From the NCBI GenBank assembly GCA_046570105.1, contig JBKHVI010000027.1, forward strand, positions 1 to 35,709: a DNA stretch of 35,709 nt, given 5' to 3'. The translations under genes and the position numbers were made by a program. The DNA is from Bacteriovoracia bacterium (GTDB lineage: Bacteria > Bdellovibrionota > Bacteriovoracia > Bacteriovoracales > Bacteriovoracaceae). Below the pieces are notes generated by a model that did no database searches, had not been told where the DNA came from, and saw only the letters and a list, made by a program, of their open reading frames with translations. Positions 3,179 through 35,709 of the stretch are shown here, piece after piece (the stretch's first letter is position 1; every line of letters starts with the position of its first letter).

Positions 3179-3248
3179 AGAATTATCATAGCGGTATCAT
3201 TGAAATTCGCGAAGCAGCATTTGGCAGAATTATGCTAGCCTTTGGCTC

Positions 3249-23300: not shown

Positions 23301-26300
23301 TTTAGTAACAAACGTCTTTGATCTTCCACGTAAGTATTTTGATGTCCGTGAAAAAGATATGGTGGCCTCACCTGGAGTGGTCAGGTCAGACATTCGTATT
23401 CGGACTTGGATCACACCAGAGTGGATTGATGCCAGGTTTGTGGCCGGCAATATTAATTCAGGTAACATGCGCTATAAGGGCCTTCCTGATCAAGCAGTCG
23501 TTAGCTCACAACATGATCTTTCAACCCTCTCATCAGGGATTATTCCGACGAATTCGAGTTATGAAATCCGATTCAAGCACCTCACGCTTGTCACAGGAAA
23601 AGTTAAAGTTCGAAACTCCTACTCAACTTCAACTCAGAAAATTAAGCCGATTCGCCAAGTCACGTGGGAGTCAGTCTTTCCGCCAGATTTGCAGGCCCCA
23701 GTCTATCTTCAAAATAAAAAAGAATCGCCTTATGGTGAGGGCTGGCAGTTAAACTTCACTAAAACCATTCTTAATCCTGGAAGCGATCGGGTTTTGGTTG
23801 AAAATGAAAATGGTGGAGTGGCCGTTTATGCGATTAAGAACGTCGTGCAAAACCTTGCGTATGACGAAAAGGGTATTGAAGCCTTTGGTTCAGATGGAGG
23901 GAATGTTTATTTTGTTAACTCAGAGAATAACCTCTTTCAATATTCTGATGGTGCGACAAATCTCATCAATCCACTTCCTCGTTACTCTGGACAAGTGGGT
24001 ATCAATGCGTCTTGGTATCATGGCTATAGTCGAAACTGTGTTAAGTCTGGCTGGAGTGGGTGCCGTAAATATGAATACACTTACCGCTATACCTGTGAAA
24101 AATATAATGCTCCATTTGATACAGGGCGAACCACGCAGAGCTTAAGTGTCAAAAACGGTTCAGTCCATTTACTGGATGGGCTAGGTGCTGTGTTTGAGTC
24201 ATCGTCTGAACTTCCAATTGCAGGACAGATGGGGCTTCCTGCTAACCTTAAAACGGCAACCAAAGCAAGTTCTGGCCCATCAATTGTCTCTCACTGTACC
24301 AATGTGACAGGTGAAGCTTGTTCGACTGTGAAAGAGAATCGCTCATTTTATGTCGTGAGAATAAAGAGTCGTCCAAAAAATCAAGTGGGCTACTGTAATA
24401 CAGCGACCTGCTATTCTGGAACTTGCTCACCACGCACATGGCTCACTGGTTCTGGGGCAGTCCCTCAAATAGGCTTTTCAGATGGCCCGCTGTCATCAGC
24501 AAAATTTAATAAGCCCTATGATTTTGTCAGCGGTAATCGTGAAGGCACTTTCTACGTAACAGATTATGGTAATAACATTGTCCGCTTTGTTGATACAGTC
24601 TTAGGGCAAGTAAGCACTGTAGCCGGAAATCGCTCTACTACAGACAGCGGTGACGGTGGCTTTGCCACAAGTGCTTCAATGTATCACCCTCGCGGCGTCG
24701 CCGTTGATTTAGATGGTAGCTTCTATGTGTCTACTGAGAAAGGTTATATCCGCAAAGTAGGCGTCGATGGTCGCATAACTACTTTTGCTGGTAAACCAAC
24801 CACGGCTGGCGGTGTCCTCGCTGATACGACTGATTTTGAGTCGATGGCGCTCAAAAATCCAAGTGGGCTAGTGCTAGATAAAGTGAATCAATTCCTTTAT
24901 GTCGCCGATACAGGCCATAACAGAATTATGCGCTTGAACCTTAATACCAAGCTTGCGCAAGTCGTCGCCGGAAATGGCACTTGTGTTGTAGGTGATACTC
25001 AAGAAGGAAAAGTCGGGCTTGAGATTTCACTTTGTGGCCCGGAGCGAATTGCTTTGGATGGTAATAACAATCTTTTGATTCTAGATAAAGTGAACAAGAG
25101 AATCCGTCGTGTTAATTTCACATCACCTGAAGATGGTCTTTTGAATTTTCAGCCTTTTGCTAAAGACAATACCATGCTTTACAAAAATCAGGCGGGAGAG
25201 TTCGTTCTTTCATATCGTGATGGCAGTCAAACACTCTTTAACAAAGATGGACAGCAGATTGAAACATCAGACCGCACGGGCAGAGTTCATCGCTTTAGCT
25301 ACAACGAAGACAAACAACTGACTAAAGTTCGCTTCCCCACTAATCAAGAGCTAGAGCTTGAGTATGCCGGTGGTCGTTTATCACAAATCATTGATCCAGC
25401 AGGCCGCATCACTCAATTCGTAAATGAAGACGGAAGAATTGGCCAAGTCATTTATCCTGACAACTCAGTTCGTGAGTTCAATTACCAAGAGGATGGGATT
25501 CTCACCGAAGAAAAAGACCAACTTGGTTATGCCACAAGCTACGAGTTAAACAATTTCAAACGCCTCAAGGTCATTCATCGTCCAGACAATACCACGATTC
25601 AGATTAGCGATGCACTTTCTCAGAGTTTGCACCAAGGGGAAGATGCAGGTGAACAAGAGCTGAAGAGCTTTAAGGGCGAGCTGAATAAGTTGCAAGATAT
25701 TATTCGCGATGCCAAAGGTTACGAGACAAGTTTCAGTCGAGACACCAATGGCTATGTTGACACGATTACGGACTCGCAAGGAAGAGTGACAAAGGTTGAG
25801 CGTGACACTGAGGGGCGTCCAACGAAGATCATTAACTTCGATGAAACTTTTAGTACAATGGCGTATAATTCATTTGGCGATCTAGTCCAACACTATAATT
25901 CTTCTTCAAATAGCTCTGAGTCTTTTGAGTATAACAGTAGTGGTAGTTTAATAAAGTACACAAATTCAATGGGCCAAGTTAGGACTGCAATCTATGATTC
26001 AGAAACGGGACTGCTTATTGAGGAGCGTGATTATTTAGGACAAATAAGTCGCAAAACTTATAATACTTTTGGTCTGGTAGCTTCTCAAACCAACCCTAAT
26101 AACGAAACCTCTCAATTTAATTATAATGAGTATGGGAACCTCGTGCAGGTGACTTCACCTAAAAATGAATCGGTACAATTTTCAAGAGATGCAAGTGGCA
26201 ATATCATTTCAAAAACGGATTCAAATAATCATTCAGTAAATTACTCATTCGATCTACTCAATAGGATTTTGTCTGTTCAGACCGCTAAAAATTTAACAAC

Positions 26301-28461
26301 AAGCTATAAATACTCTCTACGAGGTGATCTCGTTGAAATTATCGATCCTGCCAATAACAAGACCCAATTTTTTTATGACAGTATGGGGCGAACTAGCAAA
26401 AAGATATCTCCCTTAGGACAAGTCTATCAACTCTCATATGATGAAAATGGAAATGTTGCACAGGAGATTGATCCTATTGGTAGCTTAAAGAGCTTCAGCT
26501 ACGATGCGAGTAATCGATTGATAAAGAAGATACTGCCAGATGATATTTATGAATACACTTTTAATGAAAAAGGACAAATGATCTTTAGTAAAAATAATTC
26601 ATCAACCATTGCACTTAGTTTCACAGAGATTCTTGGAAGTGAAAAGGTTGCTAGCATCCTGATTGGAGGGCCTCAAGCGGTAGCCTTGGAAAGTGTACAT
26701 GTCTATGATGTTCTAGGAAGAAGAACCGAACTTCAGACTTCTGTCGGAACTTGGACGACATATTATGACGCTAATGGAAGGGTATCGACAATTAACGGGG
26801 CATTTGGTGATAATTATTTAATGGGATTTGATTCTGTAAATCGATTGAAAAATATCTCTAGGCCAGGAGGAGTTCAAAGCTTGATTAGTTTTGATGCCGC
26901 TTCGGCTGTGACTCAGATTTTGCACAAGAGAAGTGATGCCTTATTGAATGGTTTTAATTATCAACAAGATGGGTCAGGCAATAGGACGCAGATAGACTCC
27001 ATGCTTGGGACCACTGTTCTCACATATGATCAAGACGATCAGTTAACTGGCGTGAATGCCCCTTATGGCGAAGAAAGCTTCCAATATGATGAACTTGGGA
27101 ATCGAGTTATTGATAGTGATGGAGTCTTCAGTTTTGAGCAGAAAAAGTATCGAATGATTGAGGATATGGGATTCATCTACGGTTATGATGCAAACGGGAA
27201 TTTGATAACGAAACAGAGCAAAGGCTTAAACGGTGCAGTTTATAACTTTAAATACACATCTGAAAATCAACTCAAATCAATACAAATTTTTGAAGCGGCA
27301 GAACTGAAGAAAGAACTTCATTTTTATTACGATGTGCTAGGGCGAAGAATTAAAAAGCAAGTTATCGATCATAATGAAGCTCAAAAATCATTTACTCATA
27401 AATTTGCTTATGACGGTCAGGATGTCATCGCAGTCTTTAATGAAAATGACGAGTTGATGGCAAGATACACGCATTCAGGAATGCGCATGGATGATGTACT
27501 TGGCGTAGAAGTGACAAATGCTGGAGTGGACGGTGGAATGGCAAATAGCTCGGGTAAGTTCTACTTTCTGAAAGATGTCATGGGGACTATTACGGATATC
27601 ATCGATGCTGCTGGAGTAGTTGTACAGCGATACTCCTATAGTGCCTTTGGTAGATTACTCAAGACGATGGGTGCGGATGGGATGGAGCTTGCGAGTCCAA
27701 TTATCAAAACTCACTACGCGTTCACAGGAAGAGAGCTTGATGAAGAAAGTGGACTATACTACTACAGAGCACGTTATTATGATGCCCACAGTGGAAGGTT
27801 TATGCAGGAGGATCCGCACTCTGGTGATATAAGAAATCCAATTACAGTAACGAATAGATATGTTTACGGGGGAAACAACCCTGTGATGAATGTCGATCCG
27901 AATGGACGCTTCTTCTTTGCCGCAATCATTATTGGAGCAGTTTTAGGTGGTGTCATTGCTGATGCAAATGGAGGGAACTTTCTTGAAGGTGCCTTGATTG
28001 GTGCAGCTGCTGGAGGGGTTGGAGCTTTTGTTGGTGGAGCTGTTGGACTTGGAGTAGGTAACGCTGTTTCGGGTGCTATCGGTGGTACGGCTGGCTCATT
28101 TTTTGGTGGCGTTGCGGCTTTTGGAGCAGGAGCCTTTGTAGGTGGTTCGGTGGGAGGACTTGCGGGAGGTGTTGTTGGGGCCGGTATTGGTGCTGTAAAT
28201 GGACGAGGAGCCGAGGAAGGTCTTTTCTATGGACTTGGTCTAGGCTTCTCTGTCGGGGCAATTACAGGCGGATTAGCTGGGCTTGGCTCCTATGCATACG
28301 GGGACTTCTTATTTAATGATGTTGACTTCGGTATAGATGCCTTTGGGATTAAAACGAATTCAATTCAAAGATACATTTATAATGAAGCTTATGGCACAGC
28401 TTCAGGACTATCAAAAATTTTAAAAGGTCCAAATGGGACTGAATACTTGCCGGTATTTTAG
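20353..28461 (+). CDS. Giant secreted teneurin-like RHS/YD-repeat protein (Ig-like repeats, carboxypeptidase-regulatory-like, ZU5-like, NHL propeller, YD shell, RHS core, Gly-rich tip)
   Basis: Sec signal; D.AGN...D..PP Ig repeats; GVVKDKDDNPLPGVTV; LEVPAGA...LEPSG..F...SHFS; GDGG.A..A...PRGVAVD and LYVADTGHNRI (NHL); many YD..G repeats; YYYRARYYD..GRF..EDP...NNP..NVDPNG. Confidence 0.93.
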   Translation: MFNQYVYILMLASFVSSAWGRPDFLREKYLEVEIIESPQEVIELDTTHIIKGYLCLKHNIGHSNNCRMLAPEDLSKYEIKFTYPHATSDITQNVQIIEEENRFRFEASLPALTPGIQSPRFGAYLFQKGHTGHGLHVAYQKILAHIERFEQLKDKLHWKGKNSYEKHLKHLRSIAQKLQKKIHAQDARWAERSIPLQLKNFVAAPSSWMVSTASWSIEAEAQLGTGFKGEKSWLDLAFNPYDDVDDEWKVEVKQNDQLIFEQTGFKSDLHQRILLSGDFVGESEAEIKIWGKNAKKGKWHWESVFKRDLKIFRIEDLVAPTYKSFLPLPGRYVGRDVPTFSLVLEDLKGRMDRLTVDGDLVEDGGNRVSLKNTFSFETSQNTLVADIHGSQNGSDLFSITGMPQGVPEGFYNLQMLVKDFAGNQAPEASWRFIVDRTPPIIAYPNVPSIKSNDESYELEINVTDATDVLIQVFHNGVFVGETTQKIDGMAIDLVDGANFVRLTAIDEAGNMSELNYPPIFLDNLPPEIEDINIEDGLLIRTASFNIQGSAIEELGSILVNGQEVDFESTGTTFSFDISLYAEGEQTLTLELFDLAGNSITYEYQIDFLLRLVDGALIRVEKINEDQMKIMGFPGATGPNFPLEIDAGWFNSTELTANDDGSFEVILDAFDEAIVTATYPLNGRQESALAKFKFDTTLAGVVKDKDDNPLPGVTVTIQSSEQETVTDEAGRFYISDPALGDQTLIIDGTTIPVEVTQGTREFSQIAYNVSLGSRQQNILERPIYLSPKMLDGTETIITNGASVSVSSSHAPGVSLEVPAGAAVFPGGGNSGSINIIEIPGSRTSIEVPDEAIPDTVFALEPSGLEFKERVHLTLPNPNEFPEGTELVILSRNSESGYWEIDGSATVTGPDMIETKPGQGISHFSEVFAAPLGMEIKKFADGDKPRIDTLDGAVSTQISLPSFKVLGQDITPSLTYNSNWAYPNVLVTNVFDLPRKYFDVREKDMVASPGVVRSDIRIRTWITPEWIDARFVAGNINSGNMRYKGLPDQAVVSSQHDLSTLSSGIIPTNSSYEIRFKHLTLVTGKVKVRNSYSTSTQKIKPIRQVTWESVFPPDLQAPVYLQNKKESPYGEGWQLNFTKTILNPGSDRVLVENENGGVAVYAIKNVVQNLAYDEKGIEAFGSDGGNVYFVNSENNLFQYSDGATNLINPLPRYSGQVGINASWYHGYSRNCVKSGWSGCRKYEYTYRYTCEKYNAPFDTGRTTQSLSVKNGSVHLLDGLGAVFESSSELPIAGQMGLPANLKTATKASSGPSIVSHCTNVTGEACSTVKENRSFYVVRIKSRPKNQVGYCNTATCYSGTCSPRTWLTGSGAVPQIGFSDGPLSSAKFNKPYDFVSGNREGTFYVTDYGNNIVRFVDTVLGQVSTVAGNRSTTDSGDGGFATSASMYHPRGVAVDLDGSFYVSTEKGYIRKVGVDGRITTFAGKPTTAGGVLADTTDFESMALKNPSGLVLDKVNQFLYVADTGHNRIMRLNLNTKLAQVVAGNGTCVVGDTQEGKVGLEISLCGPERIALDGNNNLLILDKVNKRIRRVNFTSPEDGLLNFQPFAKDNTMLYKNQAGEFVLSYRDGSQTLFNKDGQQIETSDRTGRVHRFSYNEDKQLTKVRFPTNQELELEYAGGRLSQIIDPAGRITQFVNEDGRIGQVIYPDNSVREFNYQEDGILTEEKDQLGYATSYELNNFKRLKVIHRPDNTTIQISDALSQSLHQGEDAGEQELKSFKGELNKLQDIIRDAKGYETSFSRDTNGYVDTITDSQGRVTKVERDTEGRPTKIINFDETFSTMAYNSFGDLVQHYNSSSNSSESFEYNSSGSLIKYTNSMGQVRTAIYDSETGLLIEERDYLGQISRKTYNTFGLVASQTNPNNETSQFNYNEYGNLVQVTSPKNESVQFSRDASGNIISKTDSNNHSVNYSFDLLNRILSVQTAKNLTTSYKYSLRGDLVEIIDPANNKTQFFYDSMGRTSKKISPLGQVYQLSYDENGNVAQEIDPIGSLKSFSYDASNRLIKKILPDDIYEYTFNEKGQMIFSKNNSSTIALSFTEILGSEKVASILIGGPQAVALESVHVYDVLGRRTELQTSVGTWTTYYDANGRVSTINGAFGDNYLMGFDSVNRLKNISRPGGVQSLISFDAASAVTQILHKRSDALLNGFNYQQDGSGNRTQIDSMLGTTVLTYDQDDQLTGVNAPYGEESFQYDELGNRVIDSDGVFSFEQKKYRMIEDMGFIYGYDANGNLITKQSKGLNGAVYNFKYTSENQLKSIQIFEAAELKKELHFYYDVLGRRIKKQVIDHNEAQKSFTHKFAYDGQDVIAVFNENDELMARYTHSGMRMDDVLGVEVTNAGVDGGMANSSGKFYFLKDVMGTITDIIDAAGVVVQRYSYSAFGRLLKTMGADGMELASPIIKTHYAFTGRELDEESGLYYYRARYYDAHSGRFMQEDPHSGDIRNPITVTNRYVYGGNNPVMNVDPNGRFFFAAIIIGAVLGGVIADANGGNFLEGALIGAAAGGVGAFVGGAVGLGVGNAVSGAIGGTAGSFFGGVAAFGAGAFVGGSVGGLAGGVVGAGIGAVNGRGAEEGLFYGLGLGFSVGAITGGLAGLGSYAYGDFLFNDVDFGIDAFGIKTNSIQRYIYNEAYGTASGLSKILKGPNGTEYLPVF

Positions 28462-28468
28462 GAAGTTT

Positions 28469-29116
28469 ATGCACAATATTTTGCTAGTACTTTGTTTGAT
28501 TGTTTTGAGTTCATGTGCGACCTCTACAGAAAAAGCGTCTATTTATAGACCAATGGGTATAGCCCAGAAGAAGACTTTTTCAGTCTTTTTCAAAGCTCGA
28601 TTTAACTCTCAGATCAATACAAAGTATGCTTCACTCCTACCGTCAGATGTAACGAGTGATCTTGAGAATTGTTCAGAGGTTCGACCGGGGGATTCTAGGG
28701 ATGGTTATCTTAAATCTGTGTTGTGTTTGACGTACTTCAATTTACTTAAGTCATACGACTTAAGATTAGTTCAATCAGAGGAAGAGTTTAGGAGTAAAAA
28801 AACGTTTAGTATCGAGTATGTAATTTCTGAAGATCAAGAGATAGCAAATAAAATCTGGTCTTGGTCTAATTTATTGACTTTAACTATAATACCTTATTGG
28901 GGACAACGAGAATTCAAACTGGCTATTTTGGAACAACAAGGAGATCAAGTCATTTCTGAGAGAGTGTTTAATGCTCATTTCACGGAGTATAGGAGTATTA
29001 TTCTACTTCCAGCAATGCCATTTACTGACGGCTACAAGATAGGAACTAGAAAAGCTGTGTCAAATTTACTTTCACAGGTGGATGAGCACTTCCAGAATTT
29101 TGATAAGAAGAAATAG
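28469..29116 (+). CDS. Lipoprotein, candidate cognate immunity/partner protein
   Basis: AGGA SD; LSSC lipobox; 7 nt after the RHS stop; hydrophobic LLTLTIIPYW and IILLPAMPF segments. Confidence 0.7.
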   Translation: MHNILLVLCLIVLSSCATSTEKASIYRPMGIAQKKTFSVFFKARFNSQINTKYASLLPSDVTSDLENCSEVRPGDSRDGYLKSVLCLTYFNLLKSYDLRLVQSEEEFRSKKTFSIEYVISEDQEIANKIWSWSNLLTLTIIPYWGQREFKLAILEQQGDQVISERVFNAHFTEYRSIILLPAMPFTDGYKIGTRKAVSNLLSQVDEHFQNFDKKK

Positions 29117-29230
29117 TTGGCCAAAAAATGGCCAACAGTTTTCAAAAATTTCCAAAATTTCGCCAAAAAGTGCCTGTGGGTCTAACTCGACAACTAACCC
29201 TTCATTCGTAAGATTGTCGTAATGAGACCC
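29116..29230. repeat. Cluster of short inverted/direct repeats, candidate recombinase binding (att) region
   Basis: GTTGGCCA-AAAAA-TGGCCAAC (29116-29136); CAAAA(A)TTT repeats; TCGTAA twice 11 bp apart; GGGTCT..CGACAA / TTGTCG..AGACCC imperfect inverted repeat. Confidence 0.45.
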
Positions 29231-29240
29231 ATTTTGAGAG

Positions 29241-29271
29241 AGAAAATAAAGGGGAAGACTAAGCCTTCCCC
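29241..29271 (-). terminator. Intrinsic terminator of the recombinase operon
   Basis: Minus strand GGGGAAGGC-TTA-GTCTTCCCC followed by TTTATTTTCT, 10 nt after the stop codon. Confidence 0.85.
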
Positions 29272-29281
29272 GATGTGTTTC

Positions 29282-30301
29282 TTATTCAAAAGGATTTGTG
29301 ATCGCTTTCGTAATCATTTCTTTGGCACTTTCTCCATAAAGTCTTCTGGTATCCGAGAGAACCCCATGCCCTAAGATATATTGAAGTTCCTTCATATCTC
29401 CACCACGAGATAGAAAATTCACCGCAAAAGAATGTCTGAGATCAAGTGGTGTCCAGTCTCCTTTATAGAGATTGGCGAGCTTAAATTCAGTGACAAGGCG
29501 ATGAAATTTATTCGTGGTAAAGGGTTCATTGTAGTATGTCCAAAAAAGTACACCTGTTTTCTTAGGCTTGTTTTTAAGTAGGGTAACAAGTTCTTCAGAG
29601 ATGGGAAGAGTTCTTTCTTTACCAGCTTTATTCTCGACAAAGTGAATAGTGCCTTTTTCCAAGTTTACATCATTCCATTTTAAATCGACCACCTCCTTGT
29701 TTTTAGAGGCGGTTTCAGAGATGAGTTTAATCATTGGATAGAGATAGCCGGGGGAATAAGACTTGATGGAGGTTAAAAGATCTTCAATATGAGAAGAAGT
29801 GAGGATGTTTCTTGACTTCACCGAAGGGACATACTTTTGGTAATAAATCTTACTCAAGGGTGATTCTGAAATAATATCCTTATCCACAAGAAAGCTAAAA
29901 AGCGTGTCAACTTGACACTTAAGTCCTCTCATTGTGATGTCCCTAAGTTTGTATTCCTTTTGCACCTGATCGAGCCATACTTTGAAGGAGTCAGAGGTGA
30001 GTTCACTCACTTGATATTCTCCAAAGGTACTGACAAAATCCATGATGTGAATTTTGCTTTTTGCAAAAGCGTTGCGAGGCTTTTCATCAATAAAAATCAT
30101 GATGAGTTCTTCAAGAGTTAATTCTTGATAATGACTTCGATGTTTACGACGGTACTTGATTTCCATTTCTTCTTTATAACCTTTGGCCAGCTCTCGACTG
30201 GTAAAGGCCTTACGCACTTTCCTTTTTGAGAGTGGATGGGTAAAGCTGGTTAAAAATGTTCCATCCTGGATAGGATAGATGTTTACTTGAAATTCATTCA
30301 T
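29282..30301 (-). CDS. Tyrosine recombinase paralog with a partly degenerate active site
   Basis: ETASKNKEV (catalytic R replaced by K), PLDLRHSFA (H replaced by L), LGH and RLY retained; GAGG SD before ATG 30301. Confidence 0.88.
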   Translation of the reverse strand: MNEFQVNIYPIQDGTFLTSFTHPLSKRKVRKAFTSRELAKGYKEEMEIKYRRKHRSHYQELTLEELIMIFIDEKPRNAFAKSKIHIMDFVSTFGEYQVSELTSDSFKVWLDQVQKEYKLRDITMRGLKCQVDTLFSFLVDKDIISESPLSKIYYQKYVPSVKSRNILTSSHIEDLLTSIKSYSPGYLYPMIKLISETASKNKEVVDLKWNDVNLEKGTIHFVENKAGKERTLPISEELVTLLKNKPKKTGVLFWTYYNEPFTTNKFHRLVTEFKLANLYKGDWTPLDLRHSFAVNFLSRGGDMKELQYILGHGVLSDTRRLYGESAKEMITKAITNPFE

Positions 30302-31352
30302 GGTTTTCCTCTTTTGTGTTTTGGGTGTTGTCGTAAGGTGATGGACACTCAATATCTTGTGCTTGAAGCTGCCCATAAAGGTTGACTGTCACATCAATTG
30401 ATCTGTGCCCTAAAATGGCCTGCAGTTGATACATCTTTCCACTTTTCTTTAAGAAGTTATAAGCGAAGGAGTGACGCAGACAATGACTGGCCCAATCTTT
30501 TCCATTGGGAAAGAAGGCCTTGAATTTGGTGATATGCCTTGTGAGGGCCGAGCGCCCAATTCTTTCACCTTCTTCATTCAGAATGAGTGGGATTTTCTCA
30601 TGCTTTGCAAGTTGTTTTTCCAGAATTGTCTTTAAAACTGGAGAAATTTTTACGAATCTTTCGTGGGAGTTTTTCGTTTCCCGAAAGTGAATCAAATCCG
30701 TTTCAAAATCAATATCATCTCGATTAAGTTTGACGATCTCTCCACGTCTTGCCCCTGTGTGGGCGGCAATCGCAAGGAAGGGATATAAAAGGTCGGGTGA
30801 AAAAGTCTTGGCACTTTCTAGGACATGTAAGACTTCGTTAACAGACATGACGATACGCTTGCGGCGAGGGTTGTCATACCGCTTAAACTTGATTCGGTCT
30901 AACGGATTTTGTTGTAAATAATCTTCATGATGGAGATACTCAAAAAAGCGGTAAAATTGCGTCTTTATTCCGTTCATTGTTCGTTCACTAAGGTTTCCCT
31001 CCGTCTTTCTACTTTGAAACCACTCTTTCAAGTCGTTAACAGTGAGTTCGCCAATTCGGTAAAGGCCAAAAGCATCAATGAACGATTTGAAGTGATTTTT
31101 TCTTGATCTTACCAGTGATGCTGGAAAAATTTCGAGATACAGTTTCATGGCCTCTGATACTCGAACATCGCTAAAAACATTGACTCCCTTGGAGTTCACT
31201 TTAGTCTCTATACTTTTTTTGAAGTCTTTGGCGTCTTTGAGTGTGGCAAATCGCTTACGCTTTCTTTTCCCTGTCTTGGGGTCAAAGAACTTGACCTGAA
31301 TGTGTCCTGAACTCATTTTGTGAATTTTGACATTAAATTGATTTAAATTCAT
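30294..31352 (-). CDS. Tyrosine recombinase/integrase with canonical active site
   Basis: HTGARRGEI, ETKN, HCLRHSFA, LGH, NLY; N-terminal arm-binding-like segment; start 31352 (GGAG SD, ATGA overlap with the upstream stop). Confidence 0.93.
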   Translation of the reverse strand: MNLNQFNVKIHKMSSGHIQVKFFDPKTGKRKRKRFATLKDAKDFKKSIETKVNSKGVNVFSDVRVSEAMKLYLEIFPASLVRSRKNHFKSFIDAFGLYRIGELTVNDLKEWFQSRKTEGNLSERTMNGIKTQFYRFFEYLHHEDYLQQNPLDRIKFKRYDNPRRKRIVMSVNEVLHVLESAKTFSPDLLYPFLAIAAHTGARRGEIVKLNRDDIDFETDLIHFRETKNSHERFVKISPVLKTILEKQLAKHEKIPLILNEEGERIGRSALTRHITKFKAFFPNGKDWASHCLRHSFAYNFLKKSGKMYQLQAILGHRSIDVTVNLYGQLQAQDIECPSPYDNTQNTKEENHE

Positions 31353-32560
31353 GCGCTCATCTCCAAAAGTTCGTGGGATGATGGAAGATGATGCTCTTTC
31401 ATCATGTGTTTTTGGGTACGATCTCGAAGCCACTGATCTAATTTTTCTGGTCCTATGAGATACTTCTTTTTGACTCCGACATTTACATAGGGAAACGTCG
31501 GGTCTGATTTAATGTGGTGATAAATTAACCACTGACTGATGCCATACATACGGGCCACCTCCTTGATGGAATAGAGTCGTTTTGTGGGAGTTTGCTCCAC
31601 ACTTGTTGGCCAACATAATGTCGGCCGTTCAGTCAATGGCCGCTCTGATGGCCCTGAATTTTTTGGGGCACGATCTTTAGGATAAGGGAGTCTAAGCTTG
31701 TCGGGATTCCGGATGACAAAGAGTCCTCTAAGCTTTTTGGTTTCCGTTTTGTTCAGGCCCAGAATATAAACGTACTTGTGCTTTCTAGGTAAGCTGCGCT
31801 TAGGGATGCTATTCTGATACTCCCTAGCTTTTTTTTTCAGTTGTTGGGCAATGTCAGAAGGTACTTTGTCCCAAAAAATCTTATCCCGATGACTCCATCC
31901 ATTTTGCCAACTAATGCCAAGCTCCTGAGCATAAAGCTTAAAGCTAGTGGTCTTTCTGAATACACGGTCACTAAATCCCTTGTCTGAAAACTTCTTATCA
32001 AAGTATTCAAACCGTGCCCCAGAATCTTGTCCCAGATAGATAAAGTTACAGGCCTGATAAATGGTGCCGAGTTCCCGTGCTTCCGTGTCCGAATAGGCCG
32101 TAAAGAATCTATAAGGGGTATTCTTCACCATCCAACGGATAGAAAACATCACAAGGGCCGAAGCCAGATTCTTGGGACTCCATGAAATACACGCCCCACG
32201 GCTGATGAGCTTTTCTTTGTCCCGATATTCTTTACCCAGAAGATTAGAAAAGGCGTTAGGTGTGGCCATGACAATGACTCCAGCAAGCTTGCCTTGATAG
32301 GTGGCAATAAATCTGTGAGTCGGGCGGTGTGGCATCTTGCCAAGCCACTCATGCCTTAGAATGAAATCTTTAACTTTCTGGCACGTTTCTTTATCTTCCT
32401 TGGAAACAAACTGAAATTCAAAATCAGAAACTCGAAGCGTGTCGATCTCAGCGTGAGTCAGTTCTGCCTCTTCCAAGTCTTGAGCGAGATTTTTCTGCCT
32501 GATCTCGTATTGCCAGCAATGAGAGGCCGTGAACTCGCGAGAGTTGAGTTGGTGTTTCAT
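31349..32560 (-). CDS. Mom-like (GNAT-fold) DNA modification protein fused to a C-terminal excisionase-like HTH
   Basis: FILRHEW, GKLAGVIV, ISRGAC...PKNLASAL...SIRW, AYSD...LGTIYQACNFIYLG resemble phage Mu Mom family motifs; C-terminal LYSIKEVARMYGIS..LIY..I...P..VG...I....LDQWL is HTH_17/Xis-like. Confidence 0.75.
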   Translation of the reverse strand: MKHQLNSREFTASHCWQYEIRQKNLAQDLEEAELTHAEIDTLRVSDFEFQFVSKEDKETCQKVKDFILRHEWLGKMPHRPTHRFIATYQGKLAGVIVMATPNAFSNLLGKEYRDKEKLISRGACISWSPKNLASALVMFSIRWMVKNTPYRFFTAYSDTEARELGTIYQACNFIYLGQDSGARFEYFDKKFSDKGFSDRVFRKTTSFKLYAQELGISWQNGWSHRDKIFWDKVPSDIAQQLKKKAREYQNSIPKRSLPRKHKYVYILGLNKTETKKLRGLFVIRNPDKLRLPYPKDRAPKNSGPSERPLTERPTLCWPTSVEQTPTKRLYSIKEVARMYGISQWLIYHHIKSDPTFPYVNVGVKKKYLIGPEKLDQWLRDRTQKHMMKEHHLPSSHELLEMSA

Positions 32561-32748: not shown

Positions 32749-33495
32749 TTAGTTAATCGCTAGCACCTCCTTTTGATGATTGATAAAGGAAGTCTTTGTT
32801 TTCAAAGTGAGAAGGTCATCCAGTAAACAGTAAAAGAACTTTGGAGTTAAGTTTCCTTTGAACTTCTTTTCTGCCTGCATGACCTTATTTTGAATACCGG
32901 AAGTCTTGCTGATAAATAGCACTGCCTTAACTTCATCAGTCCCATAGTATTTGTGCATCAGTTGATCGTAGCGTTTAGCGAACTTTGCTGAAGCTTCATA
33001 TTCGAGAGGGAAATAAAAAGTGTCATCTCCGAGATTCGTCTTGATGATGCCATCAGAATTGAGTTTTCTAATTTCTTTGATTATGTGTTCATCATCAAAG
33101 AGTCCAGATTGAAGCACATTTTCGCTTAAGGCTGATTCAACTGACTTGAAGTTTGATAAAATTCGCTTGATCTCCAAGACTCCCAGATCATGGGGAATTG
33201 ATGAACTTTTCCTTTGTATGCGTTTCATTTGGGTTTTATCCCCGATGAACTTTACAAGGGACTTCTTGCTTAGAGAGTAAATCAGTTTGTTACAGGATTC
33301 TCTCAGGTAAGTGACTTCAAGAAACCCATATTTGATAAGTTTATCCAATCGTCTATGCACAGCTTGCTTACTGGCTTGATTAAAGATGTCCTCCCGTAAG
33401 TGGCGAATACTCGCCACTTTGTTAATAAACAGATAACGGAAAAGCTTTTCATCTCGCTCAGTAATGATGAGAGTGTTTTTCTGGGCCTTAAGCAT
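32749..33495 (-). CDS. Replication-relaxation (Replic_Relax) family protein
   Basis: N-terminal wHTH ITERDEKLFRYL...RRLDKL...Y.L; IPHDL; SDG and PLEYE PD-(D/E)xK-like core; coupled to the FtsK gene. Confidence 0.8.
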   Translation of the reverse strand: MLKAQKNTLIITERDEKLFRYLFINKVASIRHLREDIFNQASKQAVHRRLDKLIKYGFLEVTYLRESCNKLIYSLSKKSLVKFIGDKTQMKRIQRKSSSIPHDLGVLEIKRILSNFKSVESALSENVLQSGLFDDEHIIKEIRKLNSDGIIKTNLGDDTFYFPLEYEASAKFAKRYDQLMHKYYGTDEVKAVLFISKTSGIQNKVMQAEKKFKGNLTPKFFYCLLDDLLTLKTKTSFINHQKEVLAIN

Positions 33496-35014
33496 TTAAT
33501 ACATCCTGTTTAGTTAAAGATGGTTTCTTGACTGGAACCGAGGACGATTCAGAAGGTGTTGCAAATCCCATAGGTTGATTTAGAGTCTTTTTTTCTTCTG
33601 CATAATCTTGGGCGATCAATTGAAGCTCTGGCTTCATGGAATTTGATGAAAGAAAGGGAGTCTGGACTTCAATTTCATCATGTCCGAATTGCCAGATGCC
33701 TCGCCCAGGTGTGGCAGGAAGATGAGAAGCCTTAGCGTTTCCGAGAACGCGGACTGAACCTTCAGGAGTGTTGAGCTTGAAGCACATTCTTCCAGATATG
33801 TTTTCCTGCATTCTTGTGTCGATAGTTTCCTTAGAGACCTTTTGGGTAGCTAGGATGAGATGAATAGCAGCAGCTCGTCCAAGCTTAGCGATACTTTCGG
33901 TTAAGTCCCTTGCTTCGCTAACCAGCTCATAATCAACACTATCTTTACGGGCCTGACCATAGAGGACAGAGGCCTCATCAATACCGATAACGATGCGATC
34001 AAAAGGATGTTTGTCTGGATTGATTTGCTCTAGGCCTTTCTTTTCAAGATAGGTGAAGCGGTTATCCATTTCCTTTTTAACGAGTTTTAAAGTTATGAGA
34101 GCATCCTCAATGCTTTTTGAAACCCTGACGTTTGAAAGTTGAGAAAATTCTCTAAACTCAAGCCCACCTTTTAAGTCCACGAGATACATTTGTAGATGGT
34201 TGGTGGATTTAAGAAGGCCTAAGAGCATTTGTTTAAAGAACTGTGACTTTCCTCCACCTGTGGCACCAGCAATGAGCATATGAGGGAGCTTGGAGATTTT
34301 GCCAATGACTGTTTCTTTTTTTGATTCACCAATGAGAAAGGATTCACTTTGATCTAAGCTCCCTTGAAGTTGTTCAAAGGTCACATATTCAGGTAGAAAC
34401 TTAGTGGAGAGAATGATCTCCACATACTTAGGATTTTTAAGGCGGTTGATTTCTTCAATGTCTTTACCGAAGGCAGATTGAAGCTCGTCTTGTTTTGCTT
34501 TGAGCTTTTCGGCTCCAATGCCTGATACATAAACGATAAGTCTTGTTCGGTGCTCATCTAATCGAGTGATGCTATCAATCTCGGCGGTTACGTCTTTAGC
34601 ATTTTTAAGTCCAATGGAGTCGAGAGCGTGTTGGTAATCCTTGAAGCGGAAATACGGAATAATGCCAATGATCCAGAGAAGAACCGTTGAGATAGGAACC
34701 GCAACCAGAGAAAAGTTTTTCTGAAATCCTAGATCATGGATTGCTTGCAGTCTTTTAAGAGGAAAGAGCCATGATGAGAGATCATGGAGAAGTTGCAAGT
34801 GCCACTGATAGTGGATGATTGTCATTGTGATGAGAGAAACAAGGCTGATTCCCATCAGTAATACTTTAAAGCTTCTGAGTTGCTTCAAACCGAACCAAAA
34901 AGAATGGGTGAAGAAAACGAAGATAGGTCCTAGCTGGATGAACGCTTCATTAAGAATTTCTCCGATCATCTTGTCGGTGCTGGATGGCGTATTGGTCTTT
35001 TTTGTTTCGTTCAT
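33488..35014 (-). CDS. FtsK/SpoIIIE-family membrane ATPase (TcpA-like coupling protein/translocase)
   Basis: N-terminal TM helices; PHMLIAGATGGGKS (Walker A), VDLKGG, IDEA (Walker B), GRAAAIHLILATQK; AGGAG SD. Confidence 0.92.
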   Translation of the reverse strand: MNETKKTNTPSSTDKMIGEILNEAFIQLGPIFVFFTHSFWFGLKQLRSFKVLLMGISLVSLITMTIIHYQWHLQLLHDLSSWLFPLKRLQAIHDLGFQKNFSLVAVPISTVLLWIIGIIPYFRFKDYQHALDSIGLKNAKDVTAEIDSITRLDEHRTRLIVYVSGIGAEKLKAKQDELQSAFGKDIEEINRLKNPKYVEIILSTKFLPEYVTFEQLQGSLDQSESFLIGESKKETVIGKISKLPHMLIAGATGGGKSQFFKQMLLGLLKSTNHLQMYLVDLKGGLEFREFSQLSNVRVSKSIEDALITLKLVKKEMDNRFTYLEKKGLEQINPDKHPFDRIVIGIDEASVLYGQARKDSVDYELVSEARDLTESIAKLGRAAAIHLILATQKVSKETIDTRMQENISGRMCFKLNTPEGSVRVLGNAKASHLPATPGRGIWQFGHDEIEVQTPFLSSNSMKPELQLIAQDYAEEKKTLNQPMGFATPSESSSVPVKKPSLTKQDVLNA

Positions 35015-35503: not shown

Positions 35504-35709
35504 ATGAGTATAGATGAAGCTTTGGAAGCTCTCGCGAGTGATACAAATATCAAGTTTAAAGACCTTCTCAAAATTTGCGAGAATTTTTTTGAAGGCCCGA
35601 AGATAAAAGGAAGTCATCATATCTTCAAAACTCCATGGCAAGGCCAGCCATGGGTGAACATTCAGAAGGATGGAAACAAGGCCAAGAGCTATCAGGTGAA
35701 ACAAGTTCG
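35504..35709 (+). CDS. hicA: HicA-family toxin, truncated by the window end
   Basis: Not in the ORF track. MSIDEALEALASDTNIKFKDLLKICENFFEGPKIKGSHHIFKTPWQGQPWVNIQKDGNKAKSYQVKQV; GSH motif and NIQ..G.AK.YQVKQ. Confidence 0.88.
   Translation, partial: MSIDEALEALASDTNIKFKDLLKICENFFEGPKIKGSHHIFKTPWQGQPWVNIQKDGNKAKSYQVKQV

Follow-up and report, generated by a model that had tools for sequence, protein, structure and literature searches.

A Mom-family module joined to an excisionase-type helix-turn-helix module in a predicted integrative mobilizable element of Bdellovibrionota

The window analyzed here, i.e. the whole stretch of 35,709 nt to whose positions all coordinates refer, contains a gene for a protein of 403 residues (Table 1), which the initial annotation had reported as a single uninterrupted ORF encoding a Mom-like enzyme fused to an excisionase-like helix-turn-helix (HTH). 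This observation is confirmed: the protein, termed Mom-HTH below, comprises a Mom module (residues 1-298), a linker and an HTH module of the MerR/excisionase type (residues 326-403), and its full-length structure was predicted with a mean pLDDT of 91.8. The genes around it follow the order putative FtsK-like coupling protein, MobC-like relaxase candidate, Mom-HTH, two tyrosine recombinases (Int1 and Int2) and an attachment site candidate, and on sequence grounds the Mom-HTH gene belongs to a compact integrative mobilizable element (IME) of Bdellovibrionota. The far end of this element lies outside the window, the contig end having cut it, and related elements measure about 7-9 kb (7.0 kb in locus L022, 8.8 kb in L013). 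The whole protein retrieved no NCBIfam family up to E 0.1, and PADLOC gave nothing for it beyond a faint match to the mad1 HTH. Among the papers that we consulted, none reports a Mom-excisionase fusion or a Mom protein in an integrative mobilizable element; two earlier studies, Iyer et al. 2009 and 2013, may bear on this point, being credited with momylation systems of bacterial genomes in the available text of PMC7824862.

Table 1. Coordinates of the Mom-HTH gene, its modules and the neighboring features of the element
Feature	Position	Strand	Basis or remark
FtsK/SpoIIIE-type ATPase, 508 aa, putative TcpA-like coupling protein	33488..35014	-	PF01580, 75.6 bits
248-aa protein, Replic_Relax-related (PF13814, MobC-type relaxase superfamily)	32749..33495	-	relatives pass PF13814
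Mom-HTH fusion gene	31349..32560	-	403 aa + stop; ORF list, Pfam, PHROG, model
Mom-type GNAT module, residues 1-298	31667..32560	-	PF25680, hhalign, fold match, natural split point
Codon of R121 (Mu Mom R111)	32198..32200	-	CGT; hhalign columns; invariant in 63 sequences
Codon of S134 (Mu Mom S124)	32159..32161	-	TCG; hhalign; invariant in 63 sequences
Pro/Thr-rich linker, residues 299-325	31586..31666	-	variable length, low pLDDT
Winged HTH, MerR/excisionase type, residues 326-389	31394..31585	-	HTH_17, PHROG 66, models
C-terminal tail, residues 390-403	31352..31393	-	conserved motif [IL]-P-[ST]-x-x-[EQ]-L-[LM]
Int1, tyrosine recombinase, 352 aa	30294..31352	-	Phage_integrase, 73.3 bits; ATG overlaps Mom-HTH stop
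Int2, paralogous tyrosine recombinase, 339 aa	29282..30301	-	Phage_integrase, 80.7 bits
Terminator-like hairpin after Int2	29251..29271	-	9-pair stem then T run (consensus scan)
Candidate attachment/crossover segment	29118..29150	.	holds TGGCCAAAAAATGGCCA (29118-29134)

The Mom module and its active site

Structure prediction and profile comparison of both halves gave a Mom fold at the N-terminus and a winged helix at the C-terminus. The N-terminal half, claimed beforehand to be a Mom-like domain of the GNAT type, is recovered by the Pfam family PF25680 (Mom; 48.3 bits against a cut-off of 27.1, residues 60-190) and by PHROG 1384 'Mom-like DNA modification protein' (E 1.7e-19, residues 59-299), and hhalign pairs it with the Mom protein of phage Mu at a probability of 92%; the motif by which it had been recognized, AYSD...GTIYQACNFIYLG, is present at residues 155-177. 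The top PDB match of the module's model is Mu Mom itself (8bv8; Foldseek E 3.3e-8), and VIA-align superposes residues 44-295 of the model on residues 37-241 of 8bv8_A (Z 16.9, rmsd 3.9 A, 186 aligned residues), with the next GNATs following at Z 12.8 and about 146 aligned residues. The match to 8bv8 spans the whole chain, and the model has a GNAT core with the Mom-specific insertion. In searches of PDB sequences phmmer found no match for the Mom-HTH protein and a profile search reached Mom at E 0.21 only; hence the link to 8bv8 comes from hhalign and the fold. In the ESM Atlas, Mom clusters appear at 0.83-0.84, which is under the level that counts, and no structure is available there.

Comparison with Mu Mom showed that the shared fold extends to the PYPK end of the domain and to the insertion that follows the NF.(Y/F).G strand, the YPK motif of Mu Mom forming the C-terminal end of the module here too. 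Yet the two proteins are only about 14-22% identical, and the module described here has an extra conserved helical segment at its N-terminus (residues ~9-45), which is clade-specific, and an insertion longer than that of Mu Mom, with invariant Trp residues. The best 80 of the 179 viral-contig relatives that we found are 50-58% identical to the module over residues 1-298/312, and all 80 lack the HTH. Among the relatives of the module, 57 of 149 have N-terminal extensions of more than 100 aa; in near relatives (35-54% identity) Pfam identifies DUF7487, HNH or LAGLIDADG domains N-terminal to Mom, and in one relative (P0135) an integrase catalytic domain is directly joined to the Mom domain. Jumbo phages have fusions of a restriction-endonuclease fold to Mom (Iyer et al. 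2021, PMC7824862), which likewise combine a Mom-family domain with a DNA-acting partner in one polypeptide; however, that partner is a nuclease, read there as the restriction half of an RM-like pair, whereas the partner in Mom-HTH is C-terminal, non-catalytic and part of the recombination module.

Mu Mom glycylates N6 of adenine using Gly-tRNA(Gly) rather than acyl-CoA, giving 6-NcmdA in dsDNA, a chemistry that was settled only in 2026 (PMC13219725); the same work found R111 and S124 to be essential and the R151A mutant to have no detectable activity, ascribed DNA binding to an essential HTH-like insertion, and placed more than 8000 homologs in a similarity network. Four key residues of Mu Mom, namely R111, S124, D149 and Y159, have counterparts in the Mom module by hhalign pairing. 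In a set of 63 sequences reaching down to 31% identity, the first two (R121 and S134) and Y168, the equivalent of Y159, are invariant, and D158, the equivalent of D149, is conserved in at least 90%. In contrast, Mu Mom R151 is not kept: within an ungapped hhalign block it faces E160, which is a variable column. Two positions further lies R162, an Arg here but H, K or W in homologs, and E163 is invariant where Mu Mom has R154. The Mu Mom residues H58/Y59 correspond to E71/W72 by Pfam coordinates, or to H70/E71 with a one-residue shift, in a region that hhalign left unaligned; in this same region outside the alignment, H58 and the dimer-interface residue W48 probably lack a counterpart. Given the absence of R151 and probably of H58 and W48, the chemistry or the donor may differ from that of Mu Mom.

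The HTH module and its pairing with the integrase

The Pro/Thr-rich linker, already recognized in the initial annotation, has a pLDDT of about 49-57 in the model, and its length differs by tens of residues among 32 fused homologs while the frame is kept. The HTH_17/Xis-like tail that had been placed from about position 31579 onwards fits a start at residue 328. It scores 24.0 bits with HTH_17 (PF12728; residues 329-381), under the cut-off of 27.0, and 16.2 with TIGR01764, far under the cut-off of 28.8, but matches PHROG 66 'excisionase and transcriptional regulator' at E 4.8e-5; orthologs in four loci exceed the PF12728 cut-off, at 27.1 (L013), 28.4 (L015), 28.0 (L017) and 45.5 bits (L021). 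Two models agree on a fold of two helices, a beta hairpin and a long helix, whose structural neighbors include the excisionases RdfS (8dgl, Z 7.1), GIsul2 (8c3t, Z 6.7) and Pukovnik Xis (4j2n, Z 6.3), although this fold is common to MerR regulators, BldC and the DNA-binding domains of small terminases, all at Z <=8.0. In relation to the MerR-type excisionases 8DGL, 8C3T, 4J2N and Tn916 Xis (1Y6U), the module has a similar predicted fold (Z 5.6-7.1), the same size of DNA-binding core and the same position just upstream of an integrase. It differs from them in a sequence similarity at or below family cut-offs, in the extra long helix and conserved tail, and in the enzyme at its N-terminus, and its role in directionality is putative. 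The tail motif is kept in fused, split and stand-alone homologs, and may work with the HTH as part of a recombination directionality factor (RDF). Used by itself as the query of a word-based search, the HTH module retrieved no more than 9 short proteins, most of them fragments.

As to a separate translation of the HTH, the internal GTG in the linker (V321), which had been raised as a start, is not preceded by a Shine-Dalgarno sequence. A second internal start, at M338, is likewise improbable: the AAGGAGG before it lies inside helix 1 and codes for a conserved KEV.

Coupling to the downstream integrase, as initially proposed, is evident from an ATGA overlap of the Mom-HTH stop codon TGA (31349-31351) with the Int1 start codon (31350-31352), and in 12 of 16 related loci the two genes likewise overlap at stop and start or are separated by at most 5 nt. 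The mechanical ORF list had begun Int1 at a GTG at 31433; an alignment of 14 orthologs places the start at the ATG at 31352. In these 14 orthologs R202, K227, H290, R293, H316 and Y326, the full R-K-H-R-H-Y set, are invariant. Int2 is 31% identical to Int1 in a pairwise alignment, and its first catalytic Arg is replaced by Lys in all 12 Int2 orthologs. The pairing of the HTH with Int1 is strict: an Int1 ortholog lies downstream of the HTH in each of the 16 loci with downstream sequence, and stand-alone HTH homologs (36-43% identity) from four other genomes are situated directly upstream of an Int1-type recombinase in six cases out of six. A predicted complex of Int1 and the HTH module scored 0.51, the best of three controls reaching 0.00, with contact agreement of at least 97% between runs and a partner pLDDT of at least 67. 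This lends weak support to an interaction, given a benchmark in which 116 of 157 solved complexes and 2 of 215 mismatched pairs attained this mark, but in which passing scores of up to 0.60 comprised only 18 of the 157 solved complexes and both passing mismatches; these counts apply only roughly to Int1/HTH, for which our own alignments were used.

The element and the conservation of the fusion

The position of the HTH was said to be that usual for an excisionase or RDF, and this agrees with the gene order of compact streptococcal IMEs, which carry a TcpA coupling protein, a relaxase, an excisionase and an integrase (Coluzzi et al. 2017, PMC5357655). The likeness includes compactness, a coupling protein that is FtsK-like and not VirD4-like, and small elements without mating-pore genes, there being no T4SS genes in the L022 and L013 elements. 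In contrast to these IMEs, however, the hosts here are diderm Bdellovibrionota, two tyrosine recombinases stand in tandem, the putative excisionase bears a 298-aa enzyme at its N-terminus, and the relaxase candidate is of the PF13814/MobC type, which in the available text of PMC5357655 occurs with VirD4 and never with TcpA. The 248-aa putative relaxase has no Pfam match of its own; PF13814 is passed by its relatives in L009 and L011 (tblastn E 2.8e-19 and 1.7e-17) and, in L018 and L020, by genes that precede Mom-HTH. An oriT was not identified. Relatives of the FtsK-like protein in L009-L012 come after TrbI/CagX-like conjugation genes, and of the 13 loci whose upstream sequence extends for 4 kb or more, 4 lack the FtsK-like gene. 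The cut ORF at 35504-35707 was considered as HicA and has no Pfam match; in L003, the next ORF is HicB-like.

The att candidate contains the motif TGGCCA-N5-TGGCCA, of which the 3.0-Mb assembly has a single copy; in L022 this motif borders the element at either end. Run X11 has one contig that diverges from the window to the left of 29118 and one that does so to the right of 29150. No second copy was found in the window (up to 1 mismatch) or the assembly (exact pattern). L003 extends the sequence by 2.4 kb on the upstream side of the FtsK-like gene, and this part has no copy either when up to 3 mismatches are allowed; a search for an adjoining contig gave only matches of 29-62 nt. Two further runs, X18 and X19, are labeled as RNA and are probably DNA; they cover the region in scattered pieces only.

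Most homologs keep the fusion in a single gene, a point that the initial annotation had regarded as decisive: both modules are joined in 99 of the 120 best homologs. In at least three loci (L015, L017 and L021) two coupled genes occur instead, the break falling exactly after YPKxRGx, i.e. at the C-terminus of Mom, with junctions of the form TAATG or TAA/ATG, and the L016 copy is frameshifted. The fused or unfused state switches at least five times on the tree. Mom-only relatives are found in the T4SS elements L009-L012, at the recombinase-proximal end, besides the viral contigs noted above. The split loci, the switches on the tree and the Mom-only relatives all speak against a strict need for the fusion. 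All members of the element family found here, very small elements included, contain the Mom module, and no other protein of the cassette is as well conserved as Mom-HTH (51-71% identity, the others having 26-65%). The distribution is patchy: among 301 genomes of the phylum 18 carry Mom-HTH, and a search of a single congeneric genome gave no match.

A putative bifunctional protein and competing explanations

The occurrence of Mom and an excisionase-type protein in one gene suggests that the two activities, excision and protective marking of DNA, arise together. Mom-HTH is most likely bifunctional, and to the explanation that it combines an RDF module with an active, DNA-adenine hypermodifying enzyme of the Mom family, made together with the integrase in a small IME, we assign a probability of roughly 55%. 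The C-terminal module, a winged helix of the MerR type that ends in a conserved tail, would serve as the excisionase-like RDF of the element and would partner Int1, translated right after it, along with Int2 at a TGGCCA-N5-TGGCCA att site. The N-terminal module would be an active enzyme which, by analogy with Mu Mom, transfers an aminoacyl group from a charged tRNA to N6 of adenines in dsDNA, such that DNA made during excision and before transfer would bear bulky adducts on its adenines and withstand restriction after entering the next host. With one polypeptide or two coupled ones being followed by the integrase, enzyme output would track the excision machinery; hence a potentially harmful enzyme would be made only with that machinery and in proportion to it. 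The expression of mom in Mu is confined tightly to the late phase, and in both systems expression appears to be tied to one phase of the life cycle of the element, albeit that the carrier here is an IME and not a lytic transposable phage, and that no com-like gene was seen. Since conjugative transfer by a T4SS moves single-stranded DNA, the protection is assumed to rest on hemi-modified DNA. The earlier proposal, that the fusion links excision to protective modification or targets the latter to the element's own DNA or att sites, is partly supported, namely in the Mom family, the conserved fusion and the HTH in the excisionase slot; we infer catalytic activity, substrate, an excision-promoting role and an anti-restriction benefit from homology and context.

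To our knowledge, work on Mom-type adenine hypermodification has hitherto treated it as a weapon that phage Mu uses in its lytic phase. Here a Mom-family gene is a core gene of tiny IMEs, joined to an excisionase-like protein and co-translated with an integrase, in hosts that belong to a group of harmless environmental bacteria preying on other bacteria. If active, it would allow a conjugation-type element to pass restriction by DNA hypermodification rather than by Ard-type proteins or orphan methylases, with the timing of the modification built in by gene fusion.

A fairly unlikely alternative is that neighboring mom and xis genes were joined by the loss of a stop codon, so that the fusion means co-expression only and Mom is anti-restriction cargo. 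Repeated fission and fusion, the recombinase-proximal Mom-only genes of the T4SS elements and the HTH + Int1 units without Mom in four other genomes speak for such a scenario; the dominance of the fused form (99/120) and the retention of Mom even in very small elements speak against it. It differs from the bifunctional explanation solely in denying a selective value of the coupling.

Somewhat harder to sustain is local modification by tethering, in which the HTH would above all be a sequence-specific anchor of Mom on the element's own DNA (att arms, excised circle or oriT). Modification would then be confined to this DNA, or to a few adenines where recombination takes place, which could render excision irreversible, prevent re-cutting or label the element as self. 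The covalent joining of the modules in 99 of 120 close homologs, the frequent association of Mom relatives with other DNA-binding or nuclease domains (including the 57 of 149 with long N-terminal extensions), the integrase-Mom fusion of P0135 and the superior conservation of Mom-HTH in the cassette are in line with it. Against this, split forms exist and the state has switched repeatedly, the linker is long, disordered and variable in length, Mom-only relatives function in phage and ICE contexts, and Mu Mom has its own essential DNA-binding insertion, which is longer here. It is likewise doubtful that the excisionase domain holds a tRNA-dependent enzyme at the excision complex and that the element paints its own excised DNA, or att/oriT, in cis before transfer; if true, this would be a self-marking against restriction in the recipient that neither modifies nor harms the donor chromosome. 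The fused and split forms of the family represent a natural experiment on whether tethering matters.

It is quite improbable that the HTH regulates transcription in the manner of AlpA/MerR proteins instead of controlling directionality, or that the Mom-like module acts on tRNA, protein or a small molecule or senses charged tRNA. Homologs bear the name 'predicted DNA-binding transcriptional regulator AlpA' in the source databases and MerR regulators are among the structural neighbors of the HTH, but the module has neither a MerR-type effector domain nor a dimerization coiled coil of the usual length, and its strict pairing and translational coupling with Int1 fit a recombination partner. A target other than DNA would be compatible with the missing R151 and probably H58 positions and with the view of the authors of PMC13219725 that substrate and co-substrate are not predictable from structure alone; yet the Mom-specific insertion and C-terminal end are kept, and the nearest relatives are viral Mom-like proteins. 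The altered active-site positions, with no counterpart of R151 and probably none of H58, could also mean another aminoacyl donor and an undescribed DNA adduct. The module represents a distinct Mom subfamily, which it shares with numerous uncultured phages and in which active-site positions of importance in Mu are altered, and its product may differ as well.

Finally, the frameshifted L016 and the three split loci might bring to mind an artefact in which faulty assembly or sequencing ran two genes together; this is refuted by an identical sequence in the independent assembly L003, by matching contigs from runs of several studies with no differences listed, and by the many sources from which the 99 fused homologs come.

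The Mom-HTH protein and its Mom module

The gene directly ahead of the tyrosine recombinase Int1, here termed Mom-HTH, encodes two distinct modules in one uninterrupted frame. Residues 60-190 match the Mom family of Pfam (PF25680) with 48.3 bits against a cut-off of 27.1, and residues 59-299 correspond to PHROG 1384, 'Mom-like DNA modification protein' (E 1.7e-19). Towards the C-terminus, residues 329-381 match HTH_17 with 24.0 bits, slightly below the Pfam cut-off of 27.0, as well as PHROG 66, 'excisionase and transcriptional regulator'; the whole protein hit no named family in NCBIfam. The stop codon overlaps the ATG of Int1 in the tetranucleotide ATGA at 31349-31352. Given this frame, these domain matches and this overlap, the initial annotation was accurate in describing a single ORF with a Mom-like N-terminus and an HTH tail that is coupled to the integrase. 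A longer Int1 start, a GTG at 31433 taken from a mechanical ORF list, finds no support in the alignment of 14 orthologues. The arrangement recurs in other assemblies: an Int1 orthologue lies downstream of the HTH in all 16 related loci that have both the HTH and downstream sequence. In 12 of these the HTH stop and the Int1 start overlap or are at most 5 nt apart, in two they overlap by 7 or 14 nt according to our own start calls, and in one (L008) they are separated by 569 nt; the remaining locus, L018, gave no spacing value.

Features of the element in the window and of related loci (L003-L023, from other assemblies)
Feature	Location	Strand	Remarks
Mom-HTH gene	31349-32560	-	single open frame, 403 codons
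FtsK/SpoIIIE ATPase	upstream of Mom-HTH, same strand	-	PF01580, 75.6 bits
248-aa protein	upstream of Mom-HTH, same strand	-	no Pfam match
Int1	30294-31352	-	tyrosine recombinase
Int2	29282-30301	-	paralogue of Int1
att candidate TGGCCAAAAAATGGCCA	29118-29134		motif single-copy in the 3.0-Mb assembly
RHS-repeat/NHL protein	20353-28461	+	2702 aa
Small ORF	28433-29116	+	downstream of the RHS-repeat gene
RHS-repeat gene	L013:190-2976		beside related element
RHS-repeat gene	L005:3142-5471		beside related element; Tlde1 toxin domain
BrnT/CopG, AbiGi	L018:3042-6451		cargo
Shedu SduA	L023:5312-6409		cargo
RelE	L022:6733-7086		cargo
HicA/HicB	L013:13486-14078		cargo
HicB	L003:1342-1788		cargo; L003 extends the window's element

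When the AlphaFold model of Mom-HTH (mean pLDDT 91.8) was used as a query, the closest fold in the PDB was that of Mom itself from phage Mu (8bv8; Foldseek E 3.3e-8). VIA-align superimposed 186 residues (model 44-295 on chain 37-241) with a Z-score of 16.9 and an rmsd of 3.9 Å, as against Z-scores of at most 12.8 over about 146 residues for ordinary GNATs. A profile-sequence alignment (probability 92%) pairs R121, S134, D158 and Y168 with R111, S124, D149 and Y159 of Mu Mom, and the first, second and fourth of these are invariant in 63 sequences reaching down to 31% identity, with D158 at least 90% conserved. According to a 2026 account of the Mu enzyme (PMC13219725), it moves glycine from Gly-tRNA(Gly) onto N6 of adenine in double-stranded DNA, after which the adduct rearranges; the same account describes R111 and S124 as essential, an R151A variant as devoid of detectable activity, and an HTH-like insertion at about residues 175-209 as indispensable. 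In Mom-HTH, however, R151 corresponds to a variable position (E160), and the counterparts of H58/Y59 and W48 are uncertain or absent, which points to an active site conserved in its core but not in every detail. Unlike Mu Mom, the module of this clade has a conserved helical segment at its N-terminus, and its insertion is longer and contains nearly invariant tryptophans (W218 and W222). Contigs from the sequencing run X7 break at a 30-nt segment within this module (32118-32147), and one of them, 1670 nt long, has only these 30 nt in common with the window before diverging; this is probably due to a second Mom-like gene in the sample with the same conserved stretch.

Conservation and separability of the fusion

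A search of 5.8 billion clustered proteins returned 3804 candidates, among which 1952 relatives had E-values of 0.001 or less; their source names include Bacteriovoracaceae and Bacteriovoracales proteins, 'helix-turn-helix domain-containing', 'AlpA' and 'excisionase family'. HMMs of both modules, built from one alignment of homologues, were run on the best 120 of these 1952. Both modules are present in 99; the other 21 lack the HTH but contain the whole Mom module, the protein ending within 25 residues of it in 17 cases and carrying 29-35 extra residues in four. When 32 fused proteins (52-72% identity) are aligned, the segment between the modules varies in length by tens of residues while keeping the frame intact, as would be expected of a true inter-domain linker. 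At three loci two genes stand in place of one, encoding proteins of 305 and 114 aa (L015, where an in-frame stop is directly followed by an ATG), 305 and 110 aa (L017) and 299 and 113 aa (L021), the latter two pairs with a TAATG overlap. All three breaks fall immediately after the motif YPKxRGx, and PYPK is the C-terminal end of Mu Mom itself; the second proteins score above the HTH_17 cut-off, with 28.4, 28.0 and 45.5 bits respectively. A further locus (L016) has a frameshifted Mom-HTH gene. A FastTree phylogeny built from 174 Mom modules shows 12 switches between the fused and the unfused state, a count possibly inflated by proteins cut at contig ends; well-supported branches force at least five of them. 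The best 80 of 179 viral relatives in IMG/VR match only residues 1 to 298-312 (50-58% identity), and phage versions of this clade therefore lack the HTH. The fusion is thus real and conserved, yet separable.

The HTH module and the mobile element

Modelled alone, residues 320-403 (pLDDT 86.1) form a helix-turn-helix followed by a β-hairpin, a long helix and a short terminal helix. Foldseek found no match to this model among solved structures at E ≤0.001, and the wider VIA-align comparison gave middling scores overall, topped by a chain of 6hn7 (Z 8.0). Below that chain come excisionases: RdfS (8dgl, Z 7.1), a putative one from Klebsiella (2kvv, 6.7), that of GIsul2 (8c3t, 6.7), Pukovnik Xis (4j2n, 6.3) and Tn916 Xis (1y6u, 5.6), interleaved with BldC, DNA-binding domains of small terminases and MerR regulators. 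This mixture points to a predicted winged helix of the MerR/excisionase type, a fold that by itself does not settle the function; context says more. When 301 genomes of the phylum were searched with the alignment behind the two module HMMs, 18 gave matches, including 11 of the 67 other genomes of the same family; the single genome searched from the same genus gave none. Five genomes contain full-length fused copies, and there are also HTH-only matches. Five stretches examined for these matches contain six stand-alone HTH genes (36-43% identical). All six immediately precede a recombinase that shares 37-42% identity with Int1, and they retain [IL]P[ST]xx[EQ]L[LM], the motif of the tail. When Int1 was modelled together with residues 300-403, the predicted complex scored 0.51, the best of three controls reaching 0.00, with at least 97% of contacts agreeing between runs and a partner pLDDT of at least 67. 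Among 157 solved complexes 116 attain the mark for such scores, as do 2 of 215 mismatches. Only 18 of the 157, together with both passing mismatches, did so with scores of 0.60 or less; as the prediction used our own alignments, these counts hold only roughly. The model thus lends weak support to an interaction between Int1 and the HTH module.

The surrounding genes resemble the 'compact structure' described for streptococcal IMEs, in which coupling protein, relaxase, excisionase and integrase follow one another in the same order (PMC5357655). Relatives of the 248-aa protein pass the Replic_Relax threshold (PF13814) in L009, L011, L018 and L020, a family placed in the MobC relaxase superfamily by Coluzzi et al. 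(PMC5357655). In one Bdellovibrionales genome (L009-L012) the ATPase and Replic_Relax pair is preceded by TrbI- and CagX-like conjugation genes, and the ATPase is therefore best read as a TcpA-like coupling protein. Of the 13 loci whose sequence extends 4 kb or more upstream, nine have a coupling-protein gene and L005, L018, L020 and L023 lack it; in L018 and L020 the Replic_Relax gene still adjoins Mom-HTH, and in L005 an att motif lies immediately ahead of Mom-HTH. Downstream, Int1 is followed by Int2 (31% identity) and a terminator-like hairpin. The motif of the att candidate occurs on both sides of a 7.0-kb element in L022 and recurs near other loci, whereas an 8.8-kb element in L013 is bounded by a different repeat of 35 nt. 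In the sequencing run X11 two contigs depart from the window, one at 29118 towards the left and one at 29150 towards the right (a single contig each), the pattern expected of alternative junctions around a shared core. The window is the whole contig and the element runs off its end; no second att was found in the window, the 3.0-Mb assembly or the L003 extension.

Several further observations concern these elements. The first catalytic arginine of Int1 (TGARRGE) is replaced by lysine in Int2 (ETASKNKE), and in all 12 aligned Int2 orthologues among L005-L023. The two recombinases may form a heteromer with one catalytically altered subunit. The element adjoins the RHS-repeat gene and its small downstream ORF, and RHS-repeat genes likewise lie beside related elements. 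Past the window's end, L003 contains a second copy of 29 nt from the RHS 3' region (27787-27815). The elements may insert preferentially at RHS loci, or RHS tips may be carried along with them. In L013 (2981-5379 and 14087-14535) a 2.1-kb unit and the 8.8-kb element are enclosed by three copies of the 35-nt repeat (at 3188, 5287 and 14087) together with two repeats of 300 nt, with paralogous genes for 453-aa and 484-aa proteins after the first and third 35-nt copies, which looks like tandem accretion at one att site. The cargo of related small elements consists chiefly of toxin-antitoxin and defence genes.

Possible role of the fusion and Mom proteins in other contexts

On the most economical reading, the C-terminal module would serve the element as an excisionase-like protein that partners Int1, and the N-terminal one would be an active Mom-type DNA-modifying enzyme. 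Fusion or tight coupling would tie production of the enzyme to the phase of excision and transfer, and the modification might then protect the transferred DNA from restriction, the known role of Mom in Mu (PMC13219725). No other protein of the cassette is as well conserved as Mom-HTH (51-71% identity, with 26-65% for the rest), and even the smallest elements retain it; judged by this it appears to be under strong constraint. The stronger proposal of the initial annotation, that the fusion directs modification to the element or to its att sites, may hold, its one support being the covalent link between the modules; a strict need for such targeting is, however, disfavored by the split forms, the disordered linker and the Mom module's own DNA-binding insertion. 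Mom, excisionases and compact IMEs are each already known, and momylation genes in bacterial genomes have been reported earlier (PMC7824862). Our literature searches turned up no account of a Mom-excisionase fusion, nor of an IME with Mom among its core genes. The arrangement is readily testable.

Mom modules also occur in other mobile contexts. The Bdellovibrionales genome with L009-L012 has four Mom-only genes (333-361 aa). Each is preceded, at a distance of about 5 kb, by TrbI/CagX-like, FtsK-like and Replic_Relax genes and sits at a recombinase or IS end, next to a serine recombinase (L011), a tyrosine recombinase (L009) or a DDE transposase (L010); the surroundings look like T4SS conjugative elements. 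Among 149 representative relatives, 57 have more than 100 residues ahead of the Mom module. The 51 long relatives scanned include DUF7487, which overlaps models of the Vsr/TnsA/REase type, in 10, LAGLIDADG in three, HNH in two, and NUMOD3 and a ParB HTH in one each; Iyer et al. interpret nuclease-Mom pairings in jumbo phages as restriction combined with protective momylation (PMC7824862). In one relative, P0135 (532 aa), a tyrosine-recombinase catalytic domain (14-194) immediately precedes a complete Mom module (201-497) in a single polypeptide. This may be a genuine integrase-Mom fusion, or else the gene call may span two genes on a metagenome contig.
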